Part shown: positions 404-56,512 of the stretch, in pieces
Layout: each line of letters begins with the position of its first letter
How positions within the stretch are numbered: position 1 is the stretch's first letter
IMG/VR virus record: IMGVR_UViG_3300034156_000107
Length of the DNA stretch: 64,000 bases
Reading direction: 5' to 3' (one strand)
Origin: a virus
Taxonomy: Duplodnaviria; Heunggongvirae; Uroviricota; Caudoviricetes
The notes under the pieces: generated by a model
What the model was told of the DNA's origin: nothing
Seen by the model: the letters and a program-made list of their open reading frames with translations, nothing else
The model's database searches: none
Program-made: the position numbers and the translations under genes

Positions 404-1537
404 ATGAAAAATAAATCAATGGTTCTTTTGTCTCTTTTAACAGTAAGTATTACGCAAGCTACTTATATGGTTAAAGTAAATTTAGGTGACGAAATAACAT
501 TTTATCAATGGACAAACGACTCTCCATTACTTGGATCTTGGGTCAATTCTGGGGCTGTTTATGATTGTTCTAACTGGTCACCTCTTGTTGAATCCATGAC
601 GACTGGCATGTCTTTTACACAAACAGCAACAGATTGCAAGCAAAATCAAACACAAACTGCTCAAGATAGAGAAATTGATACTGTTACTGGCACCGTTCGT
701 GATATAGGACTTCCTTATACTAATACACAACATATTCCAGCGAGTGATACTCGATTAGCGGTTGGAACTTTAGAAACATGGATAGCTGCATTACCTGAAT
801 TTACATCTTGGGTTGATAACGGTGGCGTTACTAATTGTACAAACTGGTCCCCTGCGACTTCAACAGTGACAATCAATCAAGACTTTACTCAAACAGCCAC
901 AGACTGTACACAAGCTCAAACTCGTTCTAAACAAGATCGTGAACAAGAAACAACGACAGGGGCTTTCAGACATGTTGGTGCTGTTGTAACAGAATCAAAA
1001 AACCTTGTGGCATCGTCTACTCGATTAGCGAAAGGAGCAAAAGAAACATGGGTAGCCATTGCTTCTACTTCTACAGCGTGGGTTAATAATGGTGCATTAA
1101 CAGGTTGTTCTAACTGGTCACCAGCCACATCAACTGTCCCTGCTAACCAAGGATTTACTCAAACGGCTACAGACTGTAAACAACCACAAACTAGCACTAG
1201 ACAAGATCGTGAACAAGAAACAACAACCTTAGCTATTCGTAATAAAGGTGTTGCAGTTACTGAAAACCAAAACATTACAACAACATCTACCAGAACAGCT
1301 ACTGGCACTAAAGTGGCTCAGCAATGTTTGTATGATACTTATAACTATAATTGGTCACATGGTTTTGCTTACACAACTACAATCGTATGGGCTGGACAAG
1401 TCTTGTTTGACAACTCTTGGACTAGTGAACTTGGGGCTTATTCTTCTATGGTTATTGGCGGCTTTAAGTATAGTCGTGGTGCAGATGGTCCTGATTATCC
1501 GGGGATGTCTTATTACATTTGTAGAGAGCCTATTTAA
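404..1537 (+). CDS. secreted modular repeat protein (signal peptide, 3 tandem ~80 aa Cys-containing repeats, conserved C-terminal YYICREP domain)
   Basis: Signal peptide MKNKSMVLLSLLTVSITQA. Repeats contain NWSPATSTV...FTQTATDC...QDREQETTTG. C-terminus GGFKYSRG...YYICREPI. AT-rich upstream region. Confidence 0.8.
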   Translation: MKNKSMVLLSLLTVSITQATYMVKVNLGDEITFYQWTNDSPLLGSWVNSGAVYDCSNWSPLVESMTTGMSFTQTATDCKQNQTQTAQDREIDTVTGTVRDIGLPYTNTQHIPASDTRLAVGTLETWIAALPEFTSWVDNGGVTNCTNWSPATSTVTINQDFTQTATDCTQAQTRSKQDREQETTTGAFRHVGAVVTESKNLVASSTRLAKGAKETWVAIASTSTAWVNNGALTGCSNWSPATSTVPANQGFTQTATDCKQPQTSTRQDREQETTTLAIRNKGVAVTENQNITTTSTRTATGTKVAQQCLYDTYNYNWSHGFAYTTTIVWAGQVLFDNSWTSELGAYSSMVIGGFKYSRGADGPDYPGMSYYICREPI

Positions 1538-5712: not shown

Positions 5713-6085
5713 GACATAAATAAGTGTTAACCCTATGACCTTCGGGCCACAATCAAAGTCTATTACTATGTAGACTTAAGAAAGAAAACTATTTGAAATT
5801 TCAAATACACGAAAACCCAGTTATTCTGGGTTTTTTTGTGTGGCAATGAATATCTATTTTTACGGGTTTTTGTATGTGACGGTTTATTTTTATAATACGG
5901 AATTATGTCACTTCTTGTTTTTTTTGTAGAAATAAATTATTTTACAACAATAATAACCCAAAAAAACCTTAATAAAGCTATTAATCTCCATTAAAAATAA
6001 CATAATTAAAAAATTCCTCGTTTTAAATATATTAATTAATTATAAAATTTAAAAAAACAGTCTATATTAATAGTATTATATGTGG

Positions 6086-6098
6086 TATTATAGTATTA
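6086..6098 (+). promoter_or_regulatory. TATTATAGTATTA upstream motif of the secreted-protein gene class
   Basis: The same or near-same 13-mer recurs 30-40 nt upstream of the secreted genes at 6122, 39825, 56479(-), 32735(-) and 7509. Confidence 0.35.
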
Positions 6099-6121
6099 AT
6101 ACAACAACAATATATATAAAT

Positions 6122-7255
6122 ATGAAAAAAGCAATAATACTTTCATTATCAGCCTTAGCAGTGAGTGTTTCACAAGCTGCGTATATGGTAAAAGTTAACT
6201 TAGGTGAAGAAGTCACGTTTTTTCAGTGGGCTGCAGAACAACCAGTTCTAGGACCGTGGGTTGACACTGGACCAGTTTATGACTGTTCAGACTGGACACC
6301 AGACCCTTCAACTATTACTGTTAACATGAATTTTACACAAACAGCGACTGATTGCAAACAAAATCAAGAACAAACTGCTCAAGATAGAGAAATTGATACT
6401 GTTTCTGGCACCGTGCGTGATAGTGGTGATCCTTATGTCAATACTCAATATATTACAGTAGGCAATACTCGTGCTGCAGTTGGCTTGTTAGAATCATGGG
6501 TTGCTGCATTACCTGAATTTACATCTTGGGTTAATAATGGTGCATTAACAGGTTGTTCTAACTGGTCACCTGCGACTTCAACAGTGACAATCAATCAAGA
6601 TTTCACTCAAACAGCCACAGACTGTACACAAGCTCAAACTCGTTCTAAACAAGATCGTGAACAAGAAACAACCACAGGTTCTTTTAGAAATGTTGGTGCT
6701 GTCGTAACAGAATCACAAAACCTTGTGGCATCTTCTACTCGATTAGCGAAAGGATCAAAAGAAACATGGGTAGCCATTGCCTCTACTTCTACAGCGTGGG
6801 TTAATAATGGTGCATTAACAGGTTGTTCTAACTGGTCACCAGCCACATCAACTGTCAATGCTAACCAAGCGTTTACTCAGACAGCAACAGACTGCAAACA
6901 ACCACAAACTAGCACTAGACAAGATCGTGAGCAAGAAACAACAACCTTAGCTATTCGTAATAAAGGCGTTGCGGTTACTGAAAACCAAAATCTCACTACA
7001 TCATCTACTAGATCAGCTATTGGTACTAAATCTTCTACTATATGTCGTTTTAATGAAGTAACAGACAATGTAACGAATTATGGCTCTATTGCTAGCTACT
7101 CATTCACATGGGATGGCGAGTGGTTTTATATGGGCGATGGTGGTCCAGTGTTAAATTATAATGGTTATAGATATACTATTTCATCCTTTGTAAAAACTGT
7201 ATATTCTACTTATCTTCAAACTCATTACTATACTATATGTAGAACACCTCTATAA
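6122..7255 (+). CDS. secreted modular repeat protein, paralogue of 404..1537
   Basis: Signal peptide MKKAIILSLSALAVSVSQA. About 480 bp of the repeat core is roughly 93-95% identical in DNA to 841-1320. C-terminus YYTICRTPL. Confidence 0.8.
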   Translation: MKKAIILSLSALAVSVSQAAYMVKVNLGEEVTFFQWAAEQPVLGPWVDTGPVYDCSDWTPDPSTITVNMNFTQTATDCKQNQEQTAQDREIDTVSGTVRDSGDPYVNTQYITVGNTRAAVGLLESWVAALPEFTSWVNNGALTGCSNWSPATSTVTINQDFTQTATDCTQAQTRSKQDREQETTTGSFRNVGAVVTESQNLVASSTRLAKGSKETWVAIASTSTAWVNNGALTGCSNWSPATSTVNANQAFTQTATDCKQPQTSTRQDREQETTTLAIRNKGVAVTENQNLTTSSTRSAIGTKSSTICRFNEVTDNVTNYGSIASYSFTWDGEWFYMGDGGPVLNYNGYRYTISSFVKTVYSTYLQTHYYTICRTPL

Positions 7256-20767: not shown

Positions 20768-20773
20768 TCATTG

Positions 20774-29891: not shown

Positions 29892-30206
29892 ATGTCTCAG
29901 TTGACCGAAATTGCAGAATTAGAAGACAAATCTGCATTGTCTTCATTGTTGTCGCAACCCGGTGTCTTAATTGATATTGATCGGTCAGGCAGTATCACAG
30001 CCGAGGAAATGGAATCTTTTCTCAATGAACTATCAATGATTACTGCAGCTTCTGAAAAGAAAGATCGTTGGTTGAACTTTAGTCACAAACTCCGTAACAA
30101 AGGCAAAGAAATGAAACCTCGTGTTTGTAGTAAGCGAAACGAGATCCGTTTTAAGCTGACCGAAATTAATCCTAAATATGAGTTTATGTTTACGGATGGA
30201 GAATGA
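29892..30206 (+). CDS. EF-hand calcium-binding protein
   Basis: Canonical 12-residue EF loop DIDRSGSITAEE (DxDxSGxIxxxE) flanked by helices. RBS aaagtggag. Confidence 0.6.
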   Translation: MSQLTEIAELEDKSALSSLLSQPGVLIDIDRSGSITAEEMESFLNELSMITAASEKKDRWLNFSHKLRNKGKEMKPRVCSKRNEIRFKLTEINPKYEFMFTDGE

Positions 30207-30218
30207 ACTATAAGTTAT

Positions 30219-30248
30219 AAAAAAAACCAGCTACTGCTGGTTTTTTAT
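30219..30248. terminator. bidirectional intrinsic terminator
   Basis: aaaaaaccagctactgctggtttttt with A/T runs on both sides, between convergent genes. Confidence 0.65.
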
Positions 30249-30257
30249 TGTCTTTAC

Positions 30258-30773
30258 TTATTTCAATTCATCATATGTTTTATTAATTAGTAATGTTGAC
30301 GGCCCATATGAACATGATATTTCATATACTTTATCATAAAATGCAGGTCTTACTACAAGATGCATATCTCTTGTTGCATCTGCTGAAAATGTTCCTATGT
30401 TTTCTGCTGTCAAAAATTGAGTGTAATAAGTTCCATTATTTAGATGGACATCAATTAAAATAACTTGACTATATCTTGAAGACTTGTCTGCAAGCTCAGC
30501 AGATGTAGAAAACCCGCCATCAGTTTTGTATCCAATGTTGTAATATATAATATCTGGATACTTCGATATCGTTGGATAACCATTCATCAACTCAGGTGTA
30601 GAGAAGTTTTCAGGACACTCTTCCGGTTCAGCAGGTGGAGTAGGTTCTGTACTTCCGCTATCTTTATCAATAAATGAAATGGGTTCAGGCAGTTTGAAAT
30701 AATAACTATATTCAGCAAATGAACTTAATGGTAATAATGTTAGTAGTGCAACAGTAAATTTTATTAATCTCAT
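30258..30773 (-). CDS. secreted protein of the signal-peptide family (Pro-rich linker)
   Basis: Signal peptide MRLIKFTVALLTLLPLSSFA, then the family N-terminal motif EYSYYFKLPEPISFIDKD and linker TPPAEPEECPE. Confidence 0.7.
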   Translation of the reverse strand: MRLIKFTVALLTLLPLSSFAEYSYYFKLPEPISFIDKDSGSTEPTPPAEPEECPENFSTPELMNGYPTISKYPDIIYYNIGYKTDGGFSTSAELADKSSRYSQVILIDVHLNNGTYYTQFLTAENIGTFSADATRDMHLVVRPAFYDKVYEISCSYGPSTLLINKTYDELK

Positions 30774-30837
30774 AATATTCTAATTGTTTTATATTATTTT
30801 ATATATCAAAAATATTAAGTCAATTTCATTAGATAAT

Positions 30838-30866
30838 AAAAAACCAGCATTAGCTGGTTTTTTATC
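30838..30866. terminator. bidirectional intrinsic terminator
   Basis: aaaaccagcattagctggtttttt. Confidence 0.6.
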
Positions 30867-30874
30867 TACTTATT

Positions 30875-31909
30875 TTAGTTTTTTGATTTTACATAAATTT
30901 CTTTCAAGCTGCTCACATCAAAGTGTGGAGCGGTTGCATAAGAGAAGCTTGGACAAATTCTATTTGGTCCAACTATTCCATTACCACCACAAGGACCACC
31001 CGCACCATACACAGGCCACAATCCGAATGTGTCTGTCATATCAGTAGCTCTCTGACCCGGCCAACCAGCCGCTTCTGGATAGAGTGTTTTCGATCCGATA
31101 GATGTATTGACTGAGAAACCACCTGCAATGTTTTGCCCCTTGTTAAAGGTGCTGAATGTCTGCCATGTACCAAACATACTAGTCCATGTTGCGTTAGCAT
31201 TCTTAACCATCATCGCAGAACTTATATTCGTAGAACCACTTGGTATTACTGGATACGCTGTTGTATCGTTTGAATAACTGAGTATTTTACCCGTTTTCAT
31301 TGCCACATCTTGGAAGTTACGCTTAGCAGATCCAGCCGGTAATTGTGTCCAACGACCCACCAATATCCAGTTCCCTCCAGCAGTATTCATATCAACATAA
31401 GCTTTAGCTTTGTTTCCTAAACCATCAGTAATGTCATAAATACCACTTTGACCTGCCACTGGGTTCATGATCATTAGATAACTTGTAGATGTTCCTACAG
31501 CATTCTTGGTATTCGTTAAGTTGCTCAATTCTTTACCAGATGCTTCATCGTTATACGCAACACCTTTATCACGAATTTCACCTGTTACAGCATTTTTTTC
31601 TTGTTTGATATAACTTTCATATTTCATACCCTTACAGTTTGTTGCTGTCTGAGTGTAGGTTGTATTAATCAACTCATCGGCTGGCAATGGTGCCCAGTTT
31701 GTGCATCCGTATCTATATAATGGATCTTCTTTTGGTAAATCAACTAAACCTAATGACTTTGGAGTGATTTCTAACCACTCAACTGGTTTGAATTTTACTT
31801 CAACAGTCCCCATTATTACTTCATATTTTGCATATGATAGTCCGCAAAAAAGAGCAATTGACGCCATTGATAATATTTTTATGTTTTTATTAGTTGTCTT
31901 CATATTCAT
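30875..31909 (-). CDS. secreted protein with one TQTATNC repeat unit and a fibrinogen-C-like (FReD) domain
   Basis: Signal peptide. CTNWAPLP...YTQTATNC. SGIYDI...AYVDMNTAGGNWILVGRW matches the fibrinogen-C hallmark SGVYxI...VYCDMxTDGGGWTVIQRR. Gly/Asn-rich C-terminal part. Confidence 0.7.
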   Translation of the reverse strand: MNMKTTNKNIKILSMASIALFCGLSYAKYEVIMGTVEVKFKPVEWLEITPKSLGLVDLPKEDPLYRYGCTNWAPLPADELINTTYTQTATNCKGMKYESYIKQEKNAVTGEIRDKGVAYNDEASGKELSNLTNTKNAVGTSTSYLMIMNPVAGQSGIYDITDGLGNKAKAYVDMNTAGGNWILVGRWTQLPAGSAKRNFQDVAMKTGKILSYSNDTTAYPVIPSGSTNISSAMMVKNANATWTSMFGTWQTFSTFNKGQNIAGGFSVNTSIGSKTLYPEAAGWPGQRATDMTDTFGLWPVYGAGGPCGGNGIVGPNRICPSFSYATAPHFDVSSLKEIYVKSKN

Positions 31910-32027
31910 ACTTTGTTCTTATTATTTTAAGTATTATAATATTTTTATTGTATATTTCAAGTCTTATATAAAAATAAAAGACCTTATGGCCGTTTTATTT
32001 TTTTAATGGTAAATCCTCTCTTATCTC

Positions 32028-32735
32028 TTAAATAGCTATTCGACAGACTTGATAAGTTGATTGCTCTGCATTAACAAGTGGTCCCATATAATATCTGTAT
32101 CCACCAGAAACTACAGATGTAAGGTTTGTATGAACAGGGTTGTCAAAAACTGTTACACCTTTCCAATAAATTGCGGTACCCCATCCATATCCAAAATAAT
32201 TGTCATATCCTAAATAATAATAAGAATTATTACTATAATCACTATAATTGTGCCATTTATAGTCACATTCTGGTTGAGCTTTTGTTCCTGTATTTGTTCT
32301 GCTTGATGATACAACAATGATTTGATCTTCTGTGGATTGTATTCCCTTGTATCTAATAGCTTTCGTTGTTGATTCTTGTTCTCGTTCCTGTATTGAACGT
32401 GTTTGTGATTGCTGACAATTTGTAGCTGTTTGATTGAAGGATTCTCCCAAATTTACAGTAGATGGTTCAGGTGACCAATTATTACAACCAGTAATTGCTC
32501 CACTATCAATCCATTCGCTATATTCTGGGCTGATTACCAACCAATTTTCAGACGGTGTTTCTGGAATTGTTGGTATCTCTGGATCTGTTGGTGCTTCAGT
32601 GGTTGGTTTAAATTGAATAGATCCTGTTTGTATGTGTCCACCATTATTAGATTCAAGTGGAAAATTTAACATATATCCAGCTTGAATTATGTTTATTGAT
32701 AGTGCTGCTAATGACGCAACTATTATTCTTTTCAT
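32028..32735 (-). CDS. secreted modular protein (Pro/Thr linker, one repeat unit, C-terminal Y-rich YxVCR domain)
   Basis: Signal peptide MKRIIVASLAALSINIIQA. Linker PTDPEIPTIPETP. Repeat CNNWSPEPSTV...NQTATNCQQSQTRSIQEREQESTT. C-terminus GGYRYYMG...YQVCRIAI. Confidence 0.75.
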   Translation of the reverse strand: MKRIIVASLAALSINIIQAGYMLNFPLESNNGGHIQTGSIQFKPTTEAPTDPEIPTIPETPSENWLVISPEYSEWIDSGAITGCNNWSPEPSTVNLGESFNQTATNCQQSQTRSIQEREQESTTKAIRYKGIQSTEDQIIVVSSSRTNTGTKAQPECDYKWHNYSDYSNNSYYYLGYDNYFGYGWGTAIYWKGVTVFDNPVHTNLTSVVSGGYRYYMGPLVNAEQSTYQVCRIAI

Positions 32736-32917
32736 ATATTGTTATTAGTTTGTTATATATTATAGTATCATACAATAACATATTTAAAACCATTATGTCT
32801 TGATTTAATAAATTGTATACATTTTAATTATATGTTTTCATGAATGAATTTTTATTGCTTATTTTTCTATTTCCTGTATAATATGCAATTATTAATTCAA
32901 ATACAGGACACAGCAAA

Positions 32918-33184
32918 ATGCCCCGCACATCAGAAGACGCTTTTCAAAACAGTCAACACTACAGCATTTGCGACAATACCGGTTTTGTTGAAGCTAACGC
33001 TAGCTTCATTTACCGTGGACACTTGATTTCCTTCTCGACTATCGGGTATAATAAACCCATTCAGCAGAACCATGTTTTGGTTATCGGTAGCAATGGTAAC
33101 AGCGACATTATTAAAGAATTCGATAGCGTCGAGTCGGCCATCGTCAACATCAATAACTGGTTGAGCAACCATAATCCGAGCTAA
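32918..33184 (+). CDS. hypothetical protein
   Basis: Promoter cctgtataat; 88 aa. Confidence 0.6.
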   Translation: MPRTSEDAFQNSQHYSICDNTGFVEANASFIYRGHLISFSTIGYNKPIQQNHVLVIGSNGNSDIIKEFDSVESAIVNINNWLSNHNPS

Positions 33185-33213
33185 TCAGTAATCATTTTCT
33201 TAGGAGACTTATC

Positions 33214-33975
33214 ATGCTTCGTAACGTAACCATTCAGGGCAGATACATTGAAGGCACTTGGCTGCTTTTGGAATCATTCAATGAGTTGACTGAATACATG
33301 GAGTTCACTTCGGGCCGTGTGGTTCAGCAAATCACCCGCCTGTTGAGAAGCAAGGTCAGCCCTGAACGTTGGGATCACATGATTACTCGCACACCAGAAG
33401 GCAGTATATTGGCGGCTTCCATCATCTATTGCCAAGCCCACGGCAAAAGCCCATTGATTGAAATGGATGGAATCATTCAGCAAAAGTTTTTGAACATGGC
33501 TAATAATATTTCCCAAGGCAAAAAGCTTCTGGTTAACCCGTTGGGTGGTTATTGCTACATGACAGACGACATTTCCATTCTGTCGGAAGAAGCCTTTGAA
33601 ACAGGCTTTCAGTTGACTTACACCATCAATGAAAACACTCAATACATCAATCTGGAAAATGATCCAGAACTTGAAGAACGCACACGTCAGTATTTGGGTG
33701 AACGAGATCCGAATTACTCCTACATCTTGAACCTTCACAAGTTCAGTAAAGACGATTTGATCAAGGTGTTCACCGAATTCAAAGAAAATGGCGGTTCGAT
33801 TGTTCATGTGTACACCACAGGCACCAACGTGCCACAGATGTATGAATGCTTTGACGCAGCCAAAGAAGCTGGCTTGAATGACTTTGTTTTTGAATTCAAT
33901 GCTGGAACTGAAAACGGTATTGCAGAGTTCATCAGTCATATCAAACCTTTGTGCAATCTTACTTTGGTAGTGTGA
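33214..33975 (+). CDS. hypothetical protein
   Basis: RBS taggag; terminator at 33986-34010. Confidence 0.75.
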   Translation: MLRNVTIQGRYIEGTWLLLESFNELTEYMEFTSGRVVQQITRLLRSKVSPERWDHMITRTPEGSILAASIIYCQAHGKSPLIEMDGIIQQKFLNMANNISQGKKLLVNPLGGYCYMTDDISILSEEAFETGFQLTYTINENTQYINLENDPELEERTRQYLGERDPNYSYILNLHKFSKDDLIKVFTEFKENGGSIVHVYTTGTNVPQMYECFDAAKEAGLNDFVFEFNAGTENGIAEFISHIKPLCNLTLVV

Positions 33976-34034
33976 TAACGGAAAAATAACCCCTTCCTTG
34001 GGGTTTTATTAAATTCAATTAGGAGTGACAGATA

Positions 34035-34622
34035 ATGACTATGACCGCTATTGAACTTCGCAAAGACCTCCTTATTTGGGTGGATCTTGAAACGACTGGC
34101 TTGGATATTGCTGACAAGTTGTCGGGTGCTCAGTGTCATAAAATCCTTGAAGTCGGTATTCATATTACCGATTCGAAATTCAATATCATTGATGAAGGCT
34201 TTGAAGTGGTTATTCATCATGACGTTGAAGAAGCCAAAGCACTGGCAAATGATTACGTTCGCAATATGCACATCACCAGTGGCTTGTGGGATCGTGTTGA
34301 CGCATCGCCTGTTTCGTTGGCCGAAGCAGAAAAAATGATTTTGGCTTATATCGCTCAATTCAACATCGCTCCGGGTTCCAGTCCAATTTGTGGTAACAGT
34401 GTTTCGCTGGATCGCAACTTTATCATGGCCCAAATGTCAACCTTTGCGAGCATCCTGCATTACCGCATCATTGACGTAAGCACTCTTAAAGAAATCGTGT
34501 GGCGTGTGAAACCAGAAGTGGGTATGATGGTTAAAAAGCAAGAAAAACATCGTGGACTTGAAGACATTAAAGAGTCCATTGCGGAATATAAAATTTATGA
34601 AGAGTTCTTTTTTGTAAAATAA
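34035..34622 (+). CDS. dexA: DEDDh 3'-5' exonuclease of the oligoribonuclease / T4 DexA family
   Basis: LIWVDLETTGLD...ILEVG...HITSGL...SPICGNSVSLDRNFI...HYRIIDVSTLKEIVWR...HRGLEDIKESIAEY aligns motif by motif with E. coli Orn (LIWIDLEMTGLD...SPICGNSIGQDRRFL...HYRYLDVSTLKELARR...HQAMDDIRESVAEL). RBS aggagt. Confidence 0.85.
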   Translation: MTMTAIELRKDLLIWVDLETTGLDIADKLSGAQCHKILEVGIHITDSKFNIIDEGFEVVIHHDVEEAKALANDYVRNMHITSGLWDRVDASPVSLAEAEKMILAYIAQFNIAPGSSPICGNSVSLDRNFIMAQMSTFASILHYRIIDVSTLKEIVWRVKPEVGMMVKKQEKHRGLEDIKESIAEYKIYEEFFFVK

Positions 34623-34654
34623 CATAGAATTGTTTAAACTCTACAATACACCTT

Positions 34655-34677
34655 AAAACCTCTTCGGAGGTTTTTTC
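34655..34677 (+). terminator. intrinsic terminator
   Basis: aaacctcttcggaggtttttt. Confidence 0.75.
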
Positions 34678-34755
34678 TATTCAGATGAATTAAATCCTTT
34701 TTTTTTGAAACCATTTTGTGTTATACTCATTTCATAATTTAAAGAGGCTTTACCC

Positions 34756-35208
34756 ATGAAAGAACATCAAAACCTGATTACTGCTACCAACGTCTATGCT
34801 TGCATTGTAAACGTCAACAAACTGAAACGAGCATTGGAAGAAAGCCCCGAAGGCTTTATTGAACGCTTGACTTCTTTGCTGCCAGATACGGGTGAAGACT
34901 TGATTAAGGCTGATCTGGAAGAAGTGTCTGAAGCCTATATCTCTGACCCTTGCAAAGAACATCTGCAAAACCTGATGGAATTCATCATGGAAATTGACCA
35001 TGTAATCATTTTTGATAAAGTGGCTCTTGAAACCACTGAACTCAACAAACTGGCTCAGTATGCTGCAGATACTTTTCTGGATGATGACTATCCACGAGAA
35101 ACTGAACTGAGCACTTCACGGGTTAATCAGCAAATGAAGGGCAATGAAGCTGCAATTAAAGCGGCTACTGCTGCCTTTGAGAAATCCCTTCGTGAAAAGT
35201 TCATGTAA
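34756..35208 (+). CDS. hypothetical acidic protein
   Basis: Promoter tgtgttatact; terminator at 35226-35251. Confidence 0.7.
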   Translation: MKEHQNLITATNVYACIVNVNKLKRALEESPEGFIERLTSLLPDTGEDLIKADLEEVSEAYISDPCKEHLQNLMEFIMEIDHVIIFDKVALETTELNKLAQYAADTFLDDDYPRETELSTSRVNQQMKGNEAAIKAATAAFEKSLREKFM

Positions 35209-35318
35209 ATAAATCATCAATGAAAAAAAGGTCACTTCGGTGGCCTTTTTGTTTCTTAAAAATGTTGTTTTTAATGATGGCTTTTGGTATAATAGCTTAT
35301 CAACTCGATAGGTGACTT

Positions 35319-35609
35319 ATGAGCCAAGTATACGAATTTCCACTGTTGACCGAATCTGAATACAACGCAATGTGCATCCTGCGTCAACAACAGTCCATCT
35401 CTATCGACAAGATTGAGGACAAATCGTATGTTGATTGCATGAACACCATCATTCCCGGTCGGAGTATTTTCAACAAACTGATTAAGAAAGATCTTTGTTA
35501 TGAAACCATTGAAGACCCGATGCCAGATGGCACCGAATTTACACCGTCTATTGACTTGACTGATAAAGGTGTGGCAATGTGCCATGAGCTTGAAAAATAC
35601 ATGAAATAG
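35319..35609 (+). CDS. hypothetical protein
   Basis: Promoter tttggtataat; 96 aa. Confidence 0.65.
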   Translation: MSQVYEFPLLTESEYNAMCILRQQQSISIDKIEDKSYVDCMNTIIPGRSIFNKLIKKDLCYETIEDPMPDGTEFTPSIDLTDKGVAMCHELEKYMK

Positions 35610-35718
35610 TGGAATATTTTTCACTTTTAAAAAGTTTTTAAAAAATATCATTTTTGCTATTTACTTAATGTGTTTTTTGTTGTATAATAAAAGTCTAATA
35701 AACAAAGGTATTTATATT

Positions 35719-35850
35719 ATGCAAGGTTCATTTGGTGACGCAACAGAACGTTTCCGTGGTGGCAAAAAACGTGACACAGAAAAAGCAAAAACTCATGAGC
35801 AAGACAAAAACTGGCGAAAGAAGCGTCGTGATCGTCACGTTAACGAATAA
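35719..35850 (+). CDS. small basic protein (43 aa)
   Basis: Promoter ttgttgtataat overlaps the track start, so the start was moved to ATG 35719 (MQGSFGDATERFRGGKKRD...). Confidence 0.45.
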   Translation: MQGSFGDATERFRGGKKRDTEKAKTHEQDKNWRKKRRDRHVNE

Positions 35851-35868
35851 CGAATTTTACAATTTTGG

Positions 35869-35938
35869 CTGTTTGTAGTTCAGTTGGCAGAACTCCGTCG
35901 AAAAACGGTAGTCGTGGGTTCGAATCCCATCATACAGC
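35869..35938 (+). tRNA. tRNA-like element (canonical acceptor, D and T arms; truncated non-canonical anticodon arm)
   Basis: Acceptor CTGTTTG/CATACAG (6 bp + T.T). D-arm GTTC-AGTTGGCA-GAAC. T-arm GTGGG-TTCGAAT-CCCAT. Discriminator C. Only 20 nt sit between the D and T arms (4-bp stem CCGT/ACGG, 6-nt loop). No encoded CCA. Terminator at 35950. Confidence 0.5.
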
Positions 35939-35949
35939 CTTTATACACT

Positions 35950-35975
35950 AAGACCACTTTCGAGTGGTTTTTTTA
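35950..35975 (+). terminator. intrinsic terminator
   Basis: agaccactttcgagtggt followed by TTTTTTT. Confidence 0.7.
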
Positions 35976-36134
35976 TTGATTTTTTATATTATGTAATGAT
36001 AATCATTCTCATTTTTTTATTGACTTGACTTATTGCTGTGTTACACTATTGAATACTTTTCTATCATTATGATAAAGAATACTAAACGAATATAGATTGC
36101 GTTTTTTGCATCTAGCTATTAGGAGAATTAAATA

Positions 36135-36446
36135 ATGAAAAAGATAATGTTTGCCTGTTTACTGGTCGTCCCATTAACATCTATTGCGGTGATTGCTAAT
36201 ACCACTGATGTCATTAAATCCCGAAATGATCAGTTAGCCGAATTGGTTAAAGACTCATTTTACTCTGATGTGTCTCGTTTGAACTTGACGCCCGATCAAT
36301 ACACCACTATTGTTAGAAAAATCAGGACTACTAATGATGGGCTGACGACTGAAATTAAAGAAGTCCTTGATGATGACCAAAAAGATACATTTGAAACCAT
36401 TATGGAAGAGAAAAAAGCATCTATGGGTGATAAAATAGGCTTTTAA
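36135..36446 (+). CDS. small secreted protein
   Basis: Signal peptide MKKIMFACLLVVPLTSIAVIA; RBS aggaga. Confidence 0.65.
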   Translation: MKKIMFACLLVVPLTSIAVIANTTDVIKSRNDQLAELVKDSFYSDVSRLNLTPDQYTTIVRKIRTTNDGLTTEIKEVLDDDQKDTFETIMEEKKASMGDKIGF

Positions 36447-36633
36447 AATTTCAATAAATTTACTTACCTTAAAAAAGAAGCCTGCAATGGTTTCTTTTTA
36501 TTTTACTTTTATATAATTAATTTTTATAATAATATCTTTTTTTAGATTAATCATATATTTAAGAATCTCTCTTGCCTTTTTACTTTAATACTATTTAATA
36601 AGAAATAAACAGTTCATTAATTCTGAGGTAAAA

Positions 36634-37518
36634 ATGACAAAGAAATATATTTTAGTGCTAATTGCTCTATCCAGTTTAGGCACTATATCGCAAGCTGATT
36701 ATCAAATTAGAATTCCAATTCAACAGGCAATCTCTTTCAAGGATGTTACTTCTGGGGGTGGATCAGGCGGTAGTGGCGGCAATGGTAATGGTGGCAGCAA
36801 CGGTGGTGGTGGATTAGTTTTTACTGACCCTACTATATTAGCTGCTTATGAGGAAAAGTGTGGAGCATTTCCTAACAAAATAAATCCGTTGGCTGATCCT
36901 ATACGAGACTATGACATTAGTTGTGGTGATTATTCAAATAGAGATCTTTCTGGTTATGTGCTTGATAAAACAGGTATGCTTTTTACTAATTTTGCAAATT
37001 CAATATTAGATGGAGCTATATTAGGTGATTCTAGCTTGGCTAACAGTAATCTATCAGGAGCATCCTTAATAGGTGCTCAGTTTACCGTAAATGGCGAAAG
37101 CACTACATTAACGAATGCTGATATTAGTAATGCTAACTTAACAAATGCTTATATGAACAAATCATATTTAGAAAAAACTAATTTTACTGACTCTAATTTA
37201 ACAGGTGCTGTATTAACTAACACTAGTTTTGTTGGTGCAAACTTGAAAAATGCTAACTTAACGAATACTAATTTTGACACTTCCTATGTTATTGATACGA
37301 ATTTTACTAGTTCAAATTTTACAGGAGCCACATTAACTAATACTGCATTTATTAATACTAATTTTACTAACGCAAATTTGATTGGAGCTGATCTCAGCAC
37401 CAGTGCGTTCAGCAATGTTGATTTCACTAATATCTTGTATGATGCGACCACAAAATGGCCTTCATGGTACACACCACCACAATCTAGTAATGGATATCAG
37501 TTCACACCGCAATGGTAA
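36634..37518 (+). CDS. secreted pentapeptide-repeat protein with Gly-Ser linker
   Basis: Signal peptide, then the family motif ADYQIRIPIQQAISFKD. Linker GGGSGGSGGNGNGGSNGGGG. Long run of A(N/D)LxN/T pentapeptide repeats (NANLTNANLTNTNFD...). Confidence 0.8.
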   Translation: MTKKYILVLIALSSLGTISQADYQIRIPIQQAISFKDVTSGGGSGGSGGNGNGGSNGGGGLVFTDPTILAAYEEKCGAFPNKINPLADPIRDYDISCGDYSNRDLSGYVLDKTGMLFTNFANSILDGAILGDSSLANSNLSGASLIGAQFTVNGESTTLTNADISNANLTNAYMNKSYLEKTNFTDSNLTGAVLTNTSFVGANLKNANLTNTNFDTSYVIDTNFTSSNFTGATLTNTAFINTNFTNANLIGADLSTSAFSNVDFTNILYDATTKWPSWYTPPQSSNGYQFTPQW

Positions 37519-37697
37519 GAAAAAGATTGACAAATTTGAAAAAGTGTTGTCTAAAACAACAACCAAAATGATTGAGATCTTCAATTATCAACCATTTTGA
37601 ATAAGGCATTTTAACCAAATGTCTTATTTTTTTGTCTTAAGTTGCGTTGTTGAACCTTTTGGGCTAAAATATTTTTAAATTAACATGGGACTTTCTA

Positions 37698-38153
37698 ATG
37701 ATTTTAACTATCGAACTTGTACCTAAATCTTGCTGGTTTTCTAACTTGCGAGATCACCTCACGGAAGCACAATGGAAAGAAGTCAAGCTTAGCACATTTA
37801 AGGCTGCAGATAATCGTTGTGAAATCTGTCATGGTGTTGGGGATAAGTGGCCGGTAGAATGCCATGAGGTTTGGGAATATGACGATATCAATAAGGTACA
37901 GCGTCTGGCAAGAACTGTTGCTCTTTGCCCATCATGTCATCAAGTTAAGCATATAGGTATGGCGATGGTTACTGGTCGTTACAATCATGCAAAATCACAT
38001 TTCTCAGCTATCAATAAAGTCCCTATGAGACAAGCAGAACGCTATATTGATAAAGCCTTCAACTTGTTTAATGACCGATCAAAGTTTGAATGGACACTAG
38101 ACATTTCTTGGATTAACCAAAACTTCGGATTCACTATTAAAGAAAAACGTTAA
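37698..38153 (+). CDS. HNH-like zinc-finger protein (possible small nuclease)
   Basis: CEICHG...ECHEVWEY...N...CPSCHQVKH matches the CxxC...H...N...CxxC..H HNH layout. Confidence 0.45.
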   Translation: MILTIELVPKSCWFSNLRDHLTEAQWKEVKLSTFKAADNRCEICHGVGDKWPVECHEVWEYDDINKVQRLARTVALCPSCHQVKHIGMAMVTGRYNHAKSHFSAINKVPMRQAERYIDKAFNLFNDRSKFEWTLDISWINQNFGFTIKEKR

Positions 38154-38215
38154 TATATTGACTTTTTAAAGACTTTAAATAAACTATAGTAATAACATTT
38201 TGGAGTATTAGTATT

Positions 38216-38500
38216 ATGTTTTTTTCTTTATTTTTAATATCTTATTTGATAGCAAGTTTAACATTAAGTATCGTTTATTATGACTATTATGCTGCATTTT
38301 ATTTGGTTGCTGTTAATCTTATCATGATGATATTAATTATGAAAGATAGAATCTTTGTTAATTTATACAAAAAATTAGAGAAAAAAGATCCTTCTATTTC
38401 AATAGGTCTAGGCATTTTTCAGTGTGTCTACATGATTTTAATTTTGCCTATTCTTTTCTTTAAAATCATGACAAGTATTGTTTCATATTTTGTTTCTTGA
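38216..38500 (+). CDS. small membrane protein
   Basis: Three hydrophobic helices; AT-rich. Confidence 0.5.
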   Translation: MFFSLFLISYLIASLTLSIVYYDYYAAFYLVAVNLIMMILIMKDRIFVNLYKKLEKKDPSISIGLGIFQCVYMILILPILFFKIMTSIVSYFVS

Positions 38501-38581
38501 TTAAAAAAAAATACGATATTGCTTGCCCCAAAATCATATTCTTGATAGAATAGTCTCATCAAAACCTAGAAGGTGATTGTT

Positions 38582-38815
38582 ATGACTATCCGTTCCCGTG
38601 AAGAAATGGCTCGAAAAGTTCAAATTGACCTCGGAGGTCAATCAGGAAATTCTTTTGCCCTTATGGCTATTGCCGAAAATATCGGTAAGCAACTGGGTGT
38701 TCCGAAAGATGAGCGTGATTCTATTACCAAGGACATGATGTCAAGTGACTACGAACATCTGGTTGCCACACTGGAAAAGCATTACGGTGATTATATCGAC
38801 ATTTACGAGGTGTAA
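38582..38815 (+). CDS. hypothetical protein
   Basis: Promoter tcttgatagaat and RBS aaggtga; ATG at 38582 in frame with track ORF 38573. Confidence 0.6.
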   Translation: MTIRSREEMARKVQIDLGGQSGNSFALMAIAENIGKQLGVPKDERDSITKDMMSSDYEHLVATLEKHYGDYIDIYEV

Positions 38816-38914
38816 TCTATTTTTTAGTGTGGTTTTCACTTAAAAATGATAGCCACACTCATAAAACTCTGTTATAATACATCTACACAATCAGCAAGAG
38901 CAAGGATATAAATC

Positions 38915-39238
38915 ATGTTCCCTCATTCAATCGTCACTGCCGATGTCATCAAGGTTGACTACGACTCAGCTAAGTTCGTGGTTGATGGGAAAAATGGAAA
39001 AGAAGAAGTGGCTACACGCTTTTTCTGCACCATCCTTGTTCGGGGTGGTTTCATCTTCCGCCATACCAGTCAACTGCTGGATGAGGTAACCGCCTCCAAT
39101 GTCACCGAAAAGATTTACTCCCATGTCTTCAATGACAAGGGCACTGTAAATATGAAATTTTGGCAAGAATACCAATCGACATCCAGCACGCCACTGCTTG
39201 AAAAAATGCAGCTTGAAGCTCATCTCGAAACAGCGTAA
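38915..39238 (+). CDS. hypothetical protein
   Basis: Promoter ctgttataat and RBS aaggat. Confidence 0.65.
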   Translation: MFPHSIVTADVIKVDYDSAKFVVDGKNGKEEVATRFFCTILVRGGFIFRHTSQLLDEVTASNVTEKIYSHVFNDKGTVNMKFWQEYQSTSSTPLLEKMQLEAHLETA

Positions 39239-39290
39239 ACTACTACTTCTTTGGGAGTGTTAAACTCCCACATCTCTTTTAAGGATTACC

Positions 39291-39689
39291 ATGACACAAG
39301 TTACTCAGCTAGAACGCGAAGTTATCTCCAGTATTGCAAAACTGGGCTATCGTTCAGTCAAGACCTCCGAAATTCACACCATTTCTGACATCATTAAAAA
39401 AGCACAAGTGAATGCCGTTCTGTTGAACTTGAAACGGAAAGGCATGGTTACTATTATGGTTGATGGCATTGCTTCGCTTACCGTCCAAGGGCTTAACTCT
39501 TTCAACACCAACTATGGTGAGCAAGCCATTTCTGATGTTCAAAGTGCTCATAATGCTAAAATGCTCTTTGGTCGCCCGATGAGCCGTAATGAATTGACAT
39601 TTGTGAACAAGTGCATCGACATTCGTAATCAGGGTGTCAAAGTAGGTAAAACCATCAAAGGGATTAAGGTATGGCTCAACCGCCGTTAA
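39291..39689 (+). CDS. hypothetical protein, possible winged-helix DNA-binding fold
   Basis: RBS aaggat; helix-rich N-terminus; terminator at 39706-39737. Confidence 0.65.
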   Translation: MTQVTQLEREVISSIAKLGYRSVKTSEIHTISDIIKKAQVNAVLLNLKRKGMVTIMVDGIASLTVQGLNSFNTNYGEQAISDVQSAHNAKMLFGRPMSRNELTFVNKCIDIRNQGVKVGKTIKGIKVWLNRR

Positions 39690-39793
39690 TTTGACGGTTA
39701 CTGTAAAAAAAGAGAAGCTTAGGCTTCTTTTTTTTGTACATTTTGTTTATACATTTTGTTAAGTCATATAATTGACACATATGAAATTACTTG

Positions 39794-39806
39794 TATTATA
39801 GTATTA
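39794..39806 (+). promoter_or_regulatory. TATTATAGTATTA upstream motif (secreted-gene class)
   Basis: The same 13-mer as at 6086, 19 nt before the ATG at 39825. Confidence 0.35.
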
Positions 39807-39824
39807 ACAATAATAATAAAAATC

Positions 39825-40769
39825 ATGTACATTAAAAAATTGCTCTTAGTTCCTGCACTTTCATTGTTAGGAATGAATTCTTTCGCAGAATATCAAATAC
39901 AATATCCAGATGTTCCCGTTATCTTTAAAGATCTTGGTAAATGGGTTCCGGCTAATCCTATAATCTCTACTTGGGTTAATGTAGGCACTCCACATGATTG
40001 TCAAAGTGCTTCGCCACTTGAGAACACACAACAACTGGGTTTGTCATATGAAAAAACATTTTCAGGCTGCAAACAAGCACAAGAAAGAACTGTAACTACT
40101 TCTGAAAAACAGACGTTTACAGGTGCTGTTCGTAATCAAGTGAGCACAAAAGAAACACAAGTGTTAACTAATGCTAGTTATAAAGTTAATTCTATTGGAA
40201 CTACTGATTTTGGTCAATGGTTACAAACTGCTCCAGTTTATACAGGTTGGGTAAATCTTGAATCTCCACATGATTGTACAAGTGCTATACCACTTGAAAA
40301 TACACAAACACTTAATTCAACTTATGTAAAAACATTTTCTGGTTGCACACAGTCACAGGAACGCACTGTCACAACTTCTGAAAAGAATACTGTTACAGGT
40401 GTTGTTCGTAACGTAGTTAATACTAAGGAAAATCAAGTTCTCACTAATGTAACTTATACTGCAAATGCAATAGGAACAAAGGTTGTTAAAGAATGTGGTT
40501 ACTCAGCAGTCAGTGGACATGCTTACAGATGGTATGATATTGCCACTTATGATGGTTATACAACTACTTATGGAATGGGGTTACAATGGGATGGTTCTAC
40601 TAAAATTGATACCACAAACATTAGTAAGACTTACCCTAAAGCAGCAACTTTTGTGAATGGTGGTTATACTTATACTCGCGGTGCATTTAAAGAAAAAGGT
40701 TCACATTATGACGGTCTACGTTCATACTATTATTACTATGAAGTGTGTAGAGAACCAATTGCACCATAA
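39825..40769 (+). CDS. secreted modular repeat protein (2 repeats, C-terminal YYYYEVCREP domain)
   Basis: Signal peptide MYIKKLLLVPALSLLGMNSFA, then the family motif EYQIQYPDVPVIFKD. Repeats contain PHDC(Q/T)SA(S/I)PLENTQ...SGC(K/T)Q(A/S)QERTVTTSEK. C-terminus GGYTYTRG...YYYYEVCREPIAP. Confidence 0.75.
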   Translation: MYIKKLLLVPALSLLGMNSFAEYQIQYPDVPVIFKDLGKWVPANPIISTWVNVGTPHDCQSASPLENTQQLGLSYEKTFSGCKQAQERTVTTSEKQTFTGAVRNQVSTKETQVLTNASYKVNSIGTTDFGQWLQTAPVYTGWVNLESPHDCTSAIPLENTQTLNSTYVKTFSGCTQSQERTVTTSEKNTVTGVVRNVVNTKENQVLTNVTYTANAIGTKVVKECGYSAVSGHAYRWYDIATYDGYTTTYGMGLQWDGSTKIDTTNISKTYPKAATFVNGGYTYTRGAFKEKGSHYDGLRSYYYYYEVCREPIAP

Positions 40770-40779
40770 TTGAAAAACA

Positions 40780-40806
40780 AAAAGAAGCTTCGGCTTCTTT
40801 TTTCTT
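40780..40806 (+). terminator. intrinsic terminator
   Basis: aaagaagcttcggcttcttttttc. Confidence 0.75.
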
Positions 40807-56011: not shown

Positions 56012-56479
56012 TTAAAGGTTAGGATAGCGGCATATTTTATAGTAGTTATACTTGGTATCAGCTCTATTAAATGATCCTAATACATAAGTGTATTGACCAG
56101 AAACAAATGGAAAATACTTATTTTGTGTGTATACGCTATCAATCAATATGGCATTAGACCATTTGATATATCTAATCATTCCTGTTGGATAAGGTTTTGA
56201 TGTATTAAATGTCATTGCATAGTTAGAACTTTCTGAATAGTTTTGGCATGTATAACCTGCCCTATCTTCGTCCTTTGGTGGCACTGGTGGTTCAGGAATT
56301 ACAGGGACTTCTGGCTCAGGCGGTATTGGTGGTGTTTCTGGATTTGTAGGCGGTTTGATCTTTGAAAATACGATGTCACCTTCATTTAAGTGAGCTTTTG
56401 GATGAATGACCACTTGATAACTTGCATTCGCTATTGTTGTTACAGCCAATAAAGAGGCTATCATTATTATTTTTTTCAT
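56012..56479 (-). CDS. secreted protein (Pro-rich linker, C-terminal YYKICRYP domain)
   Basis: Signal peptide MKKIIMIASLLAVTTIANA. Linker PPIPPEPEVPVIPEPPVPP. C-terminus SGQYTYVLG...YNYYKICRYPNL. Upstream (minus orientation) motif gtattataatatta. Confidence 0.7.
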   Translation of the reverse strand: MKKIIMIASLLAVTTIANASYQVVIHPKAHLNEGDIVFSKIKPPTNPETPPIPPEPEVPVIPEPPVPPKDEDRAGYTCQNYSESSNYAMTFNTSKPYPTGMIRYIKWSNAILIDSVYTQNKYFPFVSGQYTYVLGSFNRADTKYNYYKICRYPNL

Positions 56480-56498
56480 ATTTTATTTTTATTGTTCT

Positions 56499-56512
56499 TA
56501 ATATTATAATAC
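56499..56512 (-). promoter_or_regulatory. TATTATAATATTA upstream motif (secreted-gene class), minus orientation
   Basis: The reverse complement reads gtattataatatta, about 33 nt upstream of the minus-strand ATG. Confidence 0.3.

Follow-up and report, generated by a model that had tools for sequence, protein, structure and literature searches.

An N-terminal tag on exported modular proteins of a giant low-GC element: a probable export or docking signal, possibly read by a PilV-type minor pilin

TcpF of V. cholerae and CofJ/LngJ of ETEC carry an N-terminal export signal (T4bP-SS) that docks on the minor pilins TcpB/CofB (PMC9565799, PMC6048534, PMC10120004). In TcpF and CofJ a flexible handle is followed by a disulfide-locked body, and no type IVb pilus is known with more than one exported protein (PMC10120004); each known type IVb export signal is matched to its own pilin (PMC9565799). 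Here, we analysed a 64-kb stretch of DNA (the window) with eight genes for predicted exported proteins, which share a short tag directly behind the signal peptide.

All eight ORFs named in the original prediction were confirmed (Table 1), and the true starts of g6122 and g39825 are those at 6122 and 39825, not those of longer ORFs from 6080 and 39756. By a rule-based heuristic on the N-termini, a basic n-region, a hydrophobic core and a small-x-Ala cleavage site are present in 8/8 products, in line with the claimed Sec signal peptides, and a lipobox in none. Tyr is mature residue 2 in every product, followed by alternating hydrophobic residues and a second strand with terminal Phe; thus, the common post-cleavage motif that had been claimed is a Tyr-centred motif of 15–25 residues, which we call the tag. 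As had also been noted, several of the genes (4/8) lie on the minus strand, although 87 of the 102 window ORFs are on the plus strand.

Table 1. Family genes and their expression signals in the window
Feature	Position	Strand	Product	Tag (DNA)	Architecture or evidence
g404	404..1537	+	377 aa	TYMVKVNLGDEITFYQW (461-511)	Signal peptide 1-19; 3 x 90-aa two-Cys rod repeats; Cys-bracketed C-terminal domain, ending YYICREPI
g6122	6122..7255	+	377 aa	AYMVKVNLGEEVTFFQW (6179-6229)	Signal peptide; 3 rod repeats; divergent C-terminal domain, ending YYTICRTPL
g30258	30258..30773	-	171 aa	EYSYYFKLPEPISFIDK (30663-30713)	Signal peptide; Pro/Thr linker; orphan Cys-containing domain
g30875	30875..31909	-	344 aa	KYEVIMGTVEVKFKPVEW (31775-31828)	Signal peptide; 1 rod repeat; possible fibrinogen-like (GGNW) domain
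g32028	32028..32735	-	235 aa	GYMLNFPLESNNGGHIQTGSIQFKP, long-loop (32604-32678)	Signal peptide; Pro/Thr linker; 1 rod repeat; C-terminal domain
g36634	36634..37518	+	294 aa	DYQIRIPIQQAISFKD (36697-36744)	Signal peptide; Gly/Ser linker; pentapeptide-repeat beta-helix
g39825	39825..40769	+	314 aa	EYQIQYPDVPVIFKD (39888-39932)	Signal peptide; 2 divergent rod repeats; C-terminal domain, ending YYEVCREPIAP
g56012	56012..56479	-	155 aa	SYQVVIHPKAHLNEGDIVFSK (56360-56422)	Signal peptide; Pro-rich linker; C-terminal domain only
-10-like region GTATTATAGTATTAA upstream of g6122	6085..6099	+			Motif scan
g39825 sigma-70-like promoter	39772..39807	+			TTGACA, 16 nt, TATTAT; overlaps GTATTATAGTATTAA
-10-like region GTATTATAATATTAA upstream of g56012	56498..56512	-			Motif scan
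g30875 sigma-70-like promoter	31931..31960	-			TTGAAA, 16 nt, TATAAT (11/12)
Hairpin terminator 3' of g30258	30221..30246	.			Between convergent + gene 29892-30206 and g30258
Hairpin terminator, g30875/g30258 gap	30836..30865	.
Bidirectional hairpin terminator after g39825	40779..40802	.

Behind the tag, the products combine different modules. The rod repeats of Table 1 were detected by HMM search (E 1e-14 to 1e-49), which found none in g30258, g36634 and g56012; two-Cys repeats had been foreseen, but their period is 90 aa and not 75–85 aa. The C-terminal domain, claimed for five products, links g404, g32028, g39825 and g56012 pairwise (Smith–Waterman z 6.3–11; 0/300 shuffles), and g6122 joins by profile only (jackhmmer E 5.5e-18; match in 84/101 family tails). 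The pentapeptide repeat of g36634 was likewise recovered (Pfam Pentapeptide, E 8.4e-28), whereas the fibrinogen-like domain of g30875 is a weak match to NCBIfam GGGWT_bact (E 4.9e-5; 23.3 bits, below the cut-off of 30). In the AF2 model of g404 (pLDDT 87.8) the repeats reach ∼95, and the top Foldseek matches of the rod model are SasG/Aap G5-E stalks (E 6e-3, probability up to 0.97), together with a viral protein annotated as SasG-like (E 3e-4). All 151 homologues of g6122 are unnamed, and 0 have a Pfam match to its modules; for g30258 the sole database match is an identical protein, found on a 1.9 Mb contig among others. Taken together, the modules agree with the idea of a shuffled repertoire of secreted proteins with a predicted binding role.

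The expression signals of these genes were also compared with those of their neighbours. The upstream motif GTATTATARTATTAA is enriched (8 matches at ≤2 mismatches versus 0.53 expected), but since it includes a −10 hexamer and also occurs at gene 7539-9026, whose product is non-secreted, we read it as a promoter element, an AT-rich sigma-70-like −10 region, and not as a signal specific to the family. Moreover, good −35 boxes are found at g39825, g30875 and g30258. The suggested replacement of the promoter architecture by a family-specific motif is not supported. What does distinguish the family genes is the missing Shine–Dalgarno sequence, present in g36634 alone among the eight compared with 61/83 other ORFs (p = 0.0012). 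Hairpin terminators flank several family genes, and to that extent the expectation of bounding terminators held, one hairpin in Table 1 being bidirectional. The expected very AT-rich islands are restricted to the flanks, and the genes themselves are only slightly AT-richer (GC 0.33–0.40, mean 0.364, versus 0.399 ± 0.048 for the rest).

To follow the tag outside the window, a profile of 45 positions, covering signal peptide and tag, was used in an exhaustive HMMER search (g32028 is the first sequence of tag profile A4). It matched 336 protein cluster representatives at E ≤ 1e-3 and 126 at E ≤ 1e-10, the best at 82 bits, nearly all at residues 1–44. Among 144 newly retrieved tag sequences, a rod repeat occurs in 44 and a match to the seed C-domain HMM in 26, while 82 lack both; the passengers include rods, LRR (P0231, LRR_4 E 7.4e-13), small Cys-rich proteins and others without assignment, and throughout the 336 clusters Pro/Thr/Gly linkers join the tag to unrelated passengers. 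The key Tyr/Phe is nearly invariant and stands at residue 21 in 104/138 sequences. In rod-less members the first Cys follows a median of 14.5 residues past the tag, a Cys lies within the last 12 residues in 100/132, and P/T/S/G/E/A/N account for 63% of the linker. The tag is unstructured in 2/2 AF2 models (pLDDT 44–57, versus 90+ for rods). By these comparisons the tag is an independent module, and because it heads hundreds of unrelated proteins and adjoins PilV genes, we take it for a probable, previously undescribed signal for export or docking and not for a phage oddity. We consider it quite likely that exported binding proteins carry the tag as a sorting or docking signal that is read in trans, and this part of the original prediction, a common sorting or assembly signal, came out best supported. 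Its suggestion of a donor strand in chaperone–usher style found no support, as usher and chaperone families are absent among 83 window ORFs.

The genomic neighbourhood points to a possible reader, which, like the resemblance to the TcpF/CofJ signal, was not part of the original prediction. In Pseudomonas islands, a Shufflon_N PilV-like gene is directly followed by a co-oriented tagged gene at 64 nt (L008, L045) or 62 nt (L058), and a PilV-like gene is likewise upstream of a tagged gene in L013. In L059 the first family gene, 2 nt past PilV, is without Y tag, and the tagged gene comes second, 559 nt past PilV. The passenger in L058 is an LRR domain without rod; therefore, it is the tag, not the rod, that travels with PilV. 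A 1,917,244-bp contig that encodes a protein identical to g39825 also carries, ∼63 kb past the window, the gene for a PilV homologue (P0137, 73% identical), with a ninth tagged gene 950 bp from it and a second PilV-like gene 9 kb beyond it; both PilV-like genes have an A-rich leader without Shine–Dalgarno sequence, as the family genes do. Pfam N_methyl and Shufflon_N are present in P0137 and in the island proteins, homologues are named PilV by NCBI, and unannotated segments of P. aeruginosa megaplasmids share 73% identity with the last 85 residues of P0137. In a syntenic 1.86 Mb relative, the PilV-like gene and a pilus-type secretin gene are 4 kb apart, and DsbB lies in the gap. The window itself has no pilin or pilus genes; linkage there spans 63 kb and is in trans only. 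The PilV-adjacent cases belong to one PilV clade (73–86% identical) and so reflect few independent events, among which only passenger swapping counts as independent. In one PilV context (that of L057 and P0151) no tagged gene is near, and prepilin-adjacent family members of IncP-2-like megaplasmids have a different N-terminus without Y tag.

In our model, each of the eight genes would form its own expression cassette on a Pseudomonas-linked, low-GC element of ∼1.9 Mb, with an AT-rich sigma-70-like promoter, an A-rich leader without Shine–Dalgarno sequence and usually its own terminator. The product would pass through Sec, and cleavage by signal peptidase I would expose a flexible handle of ∼15–25 residues with Tyr at mature position 2, followed by a linker or thin beta-rod and a presumably disulfide-locked passenger domain (Cys-bracketed C-domain, pentapeptide helix or possible fibrinogen-like lectin; elsewhere LRR and other folds). 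The handle would be a common targeting signal read in trans, with a large minor pilin of PilV type, placed at the tip of a type IVb pilus, as the most likely reader, and the growing pilus would carry the folded cargo through the secretin, to be either released or retained at the tip as an exchangeable adhesin adaptor, in parallel to the export signal of TcpF/CofJ used on TcpB/CofB. We give this whole proposal a probability of about 0.4; within it, the identification of the reader as PilV with its type IVb pilus is tentative, at somewhat less than even odds.

PilV adjacency may instead reflect common cargo islands and not function, the tag being a sorting or anchoring signal with another reader, such as a type II secretion pseudopilus tip, an outer membrane protein adding the tag as edge strand or some other, element-encoded partner. 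A conserved, independent N-terminal module fits this equally, most tagged genes are not beside a pilin, and in one plasmid family the prepilin 2 kb from a family member is GspG-like and not PilV. However, the tight co-oriented spacing after PilV is kept despite passenger swapping, PilV-like genes with the same leader type lie on the same giant element, and a linear N-terminal signal is unknown for type II secretion substrates, whose recognition is poorly understood (PMC10120004); we regard another reader as unlikely. Improbable is a purely structural role, in which the tag is a remnant half-repeat completing the first unit of the rod in ordinary periplasmic or surface adhesins without dedicated sorting. 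The tag does resemble the final strand of the repeats (in g39825, internal SYKVNSIG versus N-terminal EYQIQYPD) and runs straight into the Trp of the first repeat in rod-bearing members, and because of this similarity it could have originated as a structural cap; but 82 of 144 tag-bearing proteins have neither a rod repeat nor a seed C-domain match, a flexible Pro/Thr or Gly/Ser linker isolates the tag in g30258, g32028, g36634 and g56012, and AF2 does not pack it onto the rod (pLDDT <50).

The nature of the carrier bears on a further reading. The window is part of the ∼1.9 Mb element, and family relatives are absent from INPHARED (50,697 phage records), IMG/VR and PHROGs, yet present in 102 plasmids, mostly Pseudomonas megaplasmids, and in genomic islands; the rod family has 20 locations on pMPPla107, is present on a further 101 large plasmids, and was not singled out in the literature found on giant plasmids. 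The description as phage-encoded is thus unsupported for this family. That the products are secreted in phage infection, for host surface remodelling or masking (superinfection exclusion) or virion decoration, is very improbable on this distribution and on a ∼1.9 Mb carrier with PilV-like pilins, whose 1.86 Mb relative has secretin, MutS, RNase II and RTX protein genes (low-GC megaplasmids of up to 1.58 Mb have been documented; bioRxiv 10.1101/2025.09.30.679422), although the window looks phage-like, with small ORFs in long same-strand runs, two T4 Rnl1-type RNA ligases (closest relative in Ralstonia jumbo phage RsoM2USA, 41.7%), an HNH endonuclease, a kinase and matches to 16 PHROG families among 83 ORFs.

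Among described systems, phage morons share with the family genes a promoter and a terminator for every gene, the opposite-strand placement of some, and composition and translation signals unlike those of the neighbours, but the carrier is not demonstrably a phage. Giant plasmid families (pMPPla107, pQBR103, IncP-2-like, pMEGA) share multi-copy low-GC cargo with no assigned function, whereas backbone genes of the window (Rnl1) have no close relative there. Like the SasG/Aap G5-E stalks of staphylococcal surface adhesins, the rods are predicted to be elongated beta-rods of tandem repeats of long strands; unlike them, they have a 90-aa repeat with one predicted disulfide, structural matches at E 3e-4 to 4e-2 only, no Pfam G5 match and a Gram-negative host without LPXTG anchor. 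The PilV-like proteins resemble the shufflon tip adhesins of IncI/PAPI-1-type conjugative type IVb pili in their N_methyl and Shufflon_N domains. R64-type systems, however, use DNA inversion to exchange PilV C-termini and thereby vary specificity, and the literature found mentions no secreted partner for them; here, the PilV-like genes are either solitary or come first in a pair with the gene for a tagged protein. Another parallel is with TcpF/CofJ. No sequence similarity to either was found, nor fold homology, the pilin is of PilV/Shufflon_N type, as in conjugative thin pili, and not TcpB/CofB, most tagged genes are unlinked to a pilin, and export is predicted. Shared are the Sec signal peptide, a disordered N-terminal segment (∼24 residues) with a key aromatic, a disulfide-locked body (predicted here), a gene beside that of a large minor pilin and a signal that varies by lineage (PMC9565799, PMC6048534, PMC10120004): tags of Y, NIIR and FRYNY type follow element lineage, similar to the pilin-specific type IVb signals (PMC9565799). 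Where each known pilus has a single exoprotein, an element here has at least 10 tagged proteins, with 336 clusters overall, and, if our reading is true, one tag would dock many different binding proteins onto a PilV-type minor pilin.

All eight ORFs of the original prediction (named by coordinate g404, g6122, g30258, g30875, g32028, g36634, g39825 and g56012) are present, and the true starts lie at 6122 and 39825 rather than at those of the longer upstream ORFs. By our own heuristic, which is not a dedicated predictor, 8/8 carry a Sec-type signal peptide with a basic n-region, a hydrophobic core, a small-x-Ala site and no lipobox. The motif expected directly behind it was also recovered in 8/8 proteins, where a Tyr is the second residue after the predicted cut. 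Hydrophobics at alternate positions come next, then a loop and another short strand with Phe at its end. We refer to this motif as the tag, and to whatever module stands behind it as the passenger.

The two-Cys repeat, here called the rod, does exist, but its unit was 90 residues and not the proposed 75-85 aa when an HMM was built on six seed repeats. This HMM detected three rod repeats in g404 and g6122, two in g39825 and one each in g32028 and g30875, and none in g30258, g36634 or g56012. The common Cys-bracketed C-terminal domain (C-domain) was borne out by the pairwise similarity of g404, g32028, g39825 and g56012 (z 6.3-11 against shuffles), g6122 being joined only via a profile (E 5.5e-18), and the same domain forms 84 of 101 family tails. 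Pentapeptide repeats in g36634 were clear as tandem A(D/N)LXX (Pfam PF00805, E 8.4e-28, 96 bits against a cut-off of 20.2), while for the fibrinogen-C-like domain assigned to g30875 there is one match, to NCBIfam GGGWT_bact, but at a sub-threshold 23.3 bits (cut-off 30) and with neither a Pfam Fibrinogen_C nor a PDB match. These two were the only known domains returned by Pfam, NCBIfam, PADLOC and PDB sequence and profile searches, and the search for homologues of g30258 recovered the identical protein alone. Two candidate functions were rejected: anti-phage defence, with 0 PADLOC families for all eight proteins, and a chaperone-usher donor strand, with no PapD or usher families in the 83 window ORFs and no pilin-fold match.

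In an AF2 model of g404 built with 72 homologues (pLDDT 87.8, repeats near 95), the rod repeats are predicted as long hairpins in an elongated array. The closest PDB matches found by Foldseek are the G5-E stalks of SasG/Aap (E 6e-3 to 4e-2, probability up to 0.97, TM <=0.23), and the top viral match in BFVD is a protein annotated as SasG-like (E 3e-4); Pfam G5 was not matched by the rod proteins. The resemblance to SasG/Aap is weak, yet consistent with a thin rod.

The tag has the pattern Y-x-hydrophobic-x-hydrophobic (P-L-E...GG.LP.GSI). An exhaustive search of 1.84 billion representatives with A4, a 45-position profile of the signal peptide and the long-loop tag, found 336 clusters with E<=1e-3, 126 of them with E<=1e-10, and the matches covered residues 1-44 in almost all cases. 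Among 144 newly found sequences, the rod was present in 44 and a match to the seed C-domain HMM in 26, while 82 had neither; the passengers include LRR domains, small Cys-rich domains and unknown folds. Across the tagged sequences, the key aromatic is Tyr, rarely Phe, with at least 90% conservation (Tyr at residue 21 in 104/138), and a Cys lies within the last 12 residues in 100/132; where the rod is absent, a median of 14.5 residues separates the tag from the first Cys. Tag types differ from one element lineage to another: the Y-type occurs in low-GC elements, 'NIIR(T/M)xAP' in pMPPla107-like ones and 'FRYNYTL' in a third group. The idea of a shared sorting signal is strengthened, and a candidate partner of PilV type can be named for it.

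On the basis of anatomy resembling that of the pilus-exported proteins TcpF and CofJ, and of gene linkage to PilV, we propose that the tag serves in docking and export, as a handle that a PilV-type minor pilin would read in trans. In Pseudomonas islands, a co-oriented tagged gene stands directly behind the gene of a 549-579-residue Shufflon_N prepilin, homologues of which are named conjugative-pilus tip adhesin PilV by NCBI. The gap between the two is 64 nt in each of two islands (L008 and L045) and 62 nt in a third (L058), and the same order is found in L013; in L059, the first family gene, 2 nt after PilV, has no Y tag, and the tagged gene comes second, 559 nt after PilV. Since the tagged protein of L058 has an LRR passenger and no rod, it is the tag, not the rod, that accompanies PilV. 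In IncP-2-like plasmids, the family members that come after a smaller prepilin have a different N-terminus. As a side observation, 'Ig-like domain-containing' family members lie directly behind a ~300-aa prepilin gene in the IncP-2-like megaplasmids pPABL048 (L016:6779-7603) and pPniHBP1_1 (L019:4797-5630), and their annotated starts look to be placed too far downstream, because the upstream DNA in frame reads ...GWQ.V.CDRSG.GWRSCN, which matches the N-terminal region of a signal-peptide-bearing neighbouring paralogue.

Within the 64-kb window no pilin gene was found. The gene for P0137, a PilV homologue (73% identical), lies some 63 kb past the window end on the 1.9 Mb contig to which the window belongs. 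P0137 occurs also in the window's own sample, and a second PilV-like gene follows 9 kb beyond the first; both are surrounded by small ORFs, with no pilus operon nearby. P0137 carries a weak prepilin N-methylation match (PF07963), Shufflon_N (PF04917) and a GFTLFE motif, and its C-terminal 85 residues are 73% identical to unannotated segments of P. aeruginosa megaplasmids, in keeping with variable ends of shufflon type and with a Pseudomonas host. Recognition of the tag by another reader than PilV is one of the main rival readings, which we hold to be less likely.

Features of the window and of L054, a stretch of the 1.9 Mb contig, with example tag peptides
Feature	Position	Strand	Remarks
tRNA gene	35869-35938	+	Rfam 44.2 bits; ARAGORN gave no anticodon
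Exported, without tag	36135-36446	+	103-aa signal-peptide protein
Exported, without tag	47946-48275	+	small lipoprotein
Exported, without tag	55100-55954	+	SPFH/Band 7 lipoprotein
PilV-like (Shufflon_N) prepilin genes, stand-alone	L054:10001-11608 and 19236-20900		~63-72 kb past window end
Tagged 130-aa protein	L054:12557-12949	-	tag, Pro linker, C-domain; 950 bp from first PilV-like gene
Example tag peptides			GYMLNFPLESNNGGHIQTGSIQFKP; EYQIQYPDVPVIFKD

A further reading takes the tag as a purely structural cap. In g30258, g32028, g36634 and g56012, Pro/Thr or Gly/Ser linkers set the tag apart from all else, and two AF2 models give it a pLDDT of 44-57. We regard a cap as improbable. In the boldest form of the PilV reading, the tag would be an undescribed sorting signal for a large secretome dependent on PilV and type IVb pili. 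In giant plasmids and small islands alike, interchangeable secreted adaptors that fit a single minor pilin, not DNA inversion of PilV, would vary what the tip binds; we put the probability of this form at roughly one in three.

A 76 kb JGI contig matches the window at 100% identity over 16.3 kb, and identity to the sister-sample contig Ga0370506_000001 (1,917,244 bp) is 96-99%. Related contigs from independent assemblies are Ga0308158_10000001 (1,859,102 bp) and ERZ27281805 k141_522346 (1,843,594 bp). This element of ~1.9 Mb and ~38% GC occurs in several metagenomes, carries phage-like small same-strand ORFs alongside PilV-like pilins and was not found in IMG/VR. Phage-like content of the window comprises two T4 Rnl1-type ligases, an HNH endonuclease, a kinase and 16 PHROG families matched among 83 ORFs. 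The family had been described as phage-encoded; this is unsupported, because it has no relatives in INPHARED (megablast and tblastn, 50,697 phage records), PHROGs or IMG/VR (exact-match and family scans) and does occur in plasmids, because the 1.86 Mb relative encodes a secretin, DsbB, RNase II, MutS and an RTX protein, and because megaplasmids of low GC are on record with sizes of up to 1.58 Mb (bioRxiv 10.1101/2025.09.30.679422). A check for known virion or phage protein families gave no PHROG match for the family except to pentapeptide families. The element may be a giant plasmid, another extrachromosomal element or a huge phage; a giant plasmid-like carrier is more likely, and a phage role in surface remodelling is improbable.

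The family was found in 102 PLSDB plasmids, nearly all of them Pseudomonas megaplasmids of 318-972 kb. It is also present on pMPCFBP13716, on other giant contigs from metagenomes and in low-GC chromosomal islands of Pseudomonas. pMPPla107 has 20 places matching the family, which would make it one of the largest paralogous families of that plasmid; one of its members, of 981 aa, combines an NIIR-type tag with about ten rod repeats (L014:10585-13530). A pMPPla107-type backbone for the window was rejected, the window Rnl1 having no close plasmid relative. The two Rnl1-type RNA ligases (57654-58775 and 59742-60863, +) are diverged paralogues 1 kb apart (Pfam RNA_lig_T4_1, 1.5e-27 and 3e-8), with the nearest relative in Ralstonia jumbo phage RsoM2USA (41.7%). 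They suggest an RNA-repair set when taken with a kinase-like AAA_33 protein that the window encodes at another place and with an RNA 2'-phosphotransferase further along the contig.

The upstream motif GTATTATARTATTAA, originally assigned to the family, is enriched (8 hits against 0.53 expected), but it is not family-specific. Because it contains a -10 hexamer, because good -35 boxes with correct spacing occur in three of the eight tagged genes, and because it also precedes a non-secreted gene, this element is an AT-rich sigma-70-like promoter. The non-secreted gene (7539-9026, +; 495 aa, no family match) has the promoter element TTATTATAGTATTAG at 7523-7537 as in the tagged genes, with which it may be co-regulated. 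What really separates the family genes from others is translational: a Shine-Dalgarno sequence precedes 1/8 of them against 61/83 other ORFs (p=0.0012). In Pseudomonas islands the homologues have A-rich leaders lacking it too, as have the PilV-like genes on the giant element. A leader motif, 'AACAATAAWAA', was only twofold enriched and of low complexity, and the leader is therefore described merely as A-rich and without Shine-Dalgarno; Rfam found no leader RNA in the window, and only one tRNA.

The very AT-rich setting ascribed to the family genes was reduced to a slight difference (GC 0.364 vs 0.399 +/- 0.048 for neighbours). Terminator hairpins do stand behind most of them, and the picture of moron-like cassettes holds. 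Where the window is richest in AT (GC 0.26-0.30), it holds two tandem paralogue pairs on the + strand, one of multi-pass membrane proteins with acidic tails (10108-10953 and 11054-11830) and one of ~410-aa proteins with no family match (26567-27790 and 27901-29124); all four genes lack a Shine-Dalgarno sequence, as the tagged genes do.

How type II secretion and type IV pili recognise their substrates is poorly understood and, to our knowledge, the only defined linear signal is that of two or three enteric exoproteins, each pilus having one. If the PilV-read tag is real, the view of a single dedicated exoprotein for type IVb pili would be overturned, and a tag on hundreds of unrelated passengers would offer a test bed for cargo selection. 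It could explain a wider range of recipients and surfaces for conjugative pili and giant mobile elements, and would give a function to many 'hypothetical' genes of Pseudomonas megaplasmids, including the clinically important IncP-2-like resistance plasmids, as well as supply a portable export tag for engineering. Even without PilV as reader, the tag is a widespread sorting-type module that is missing from Pfam and NCBIfam. In the literature, we found no description of PilV-associated secreted proteins, and nothing relevant on secreted moron proteins of jumbo phages.

The known systems closest to this proposal are TcpF and CofJ, which are Sec-exported and retain a disordered segment of ~24 residues at the N-terminus. 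It includes a key aromatic (Tyr5 in TcpF, Phe10 in CofJ), and this segment docks between the subunits of a trimeric minor pilin at the tip of the type IVb pilus (PMC9565799, PMC6048534, PMC10120004). The export signal is lineage-specific, with a single exported protein reported per pilus (PMC9565799, PMC6048534, PMC10120004), and TcpF and CofJ are not homologous to each other (PMC10120004). The tagged family parallels this anatomy point by point: a signal peptide is followed by a probably flexible N-terminal segment of the mature protein, as judged from the heuristic, AF2 and the linkers, and the segment holds a conserved key aromatic in 8/8 window proteins. Unlike TcpF and CofJ, to which it has no sequence homology (no PDB sequence or profile matches), the tagged family has a PilV-type pilin as the candidate reader of its tag, and it forms a large shuffled repertoire.
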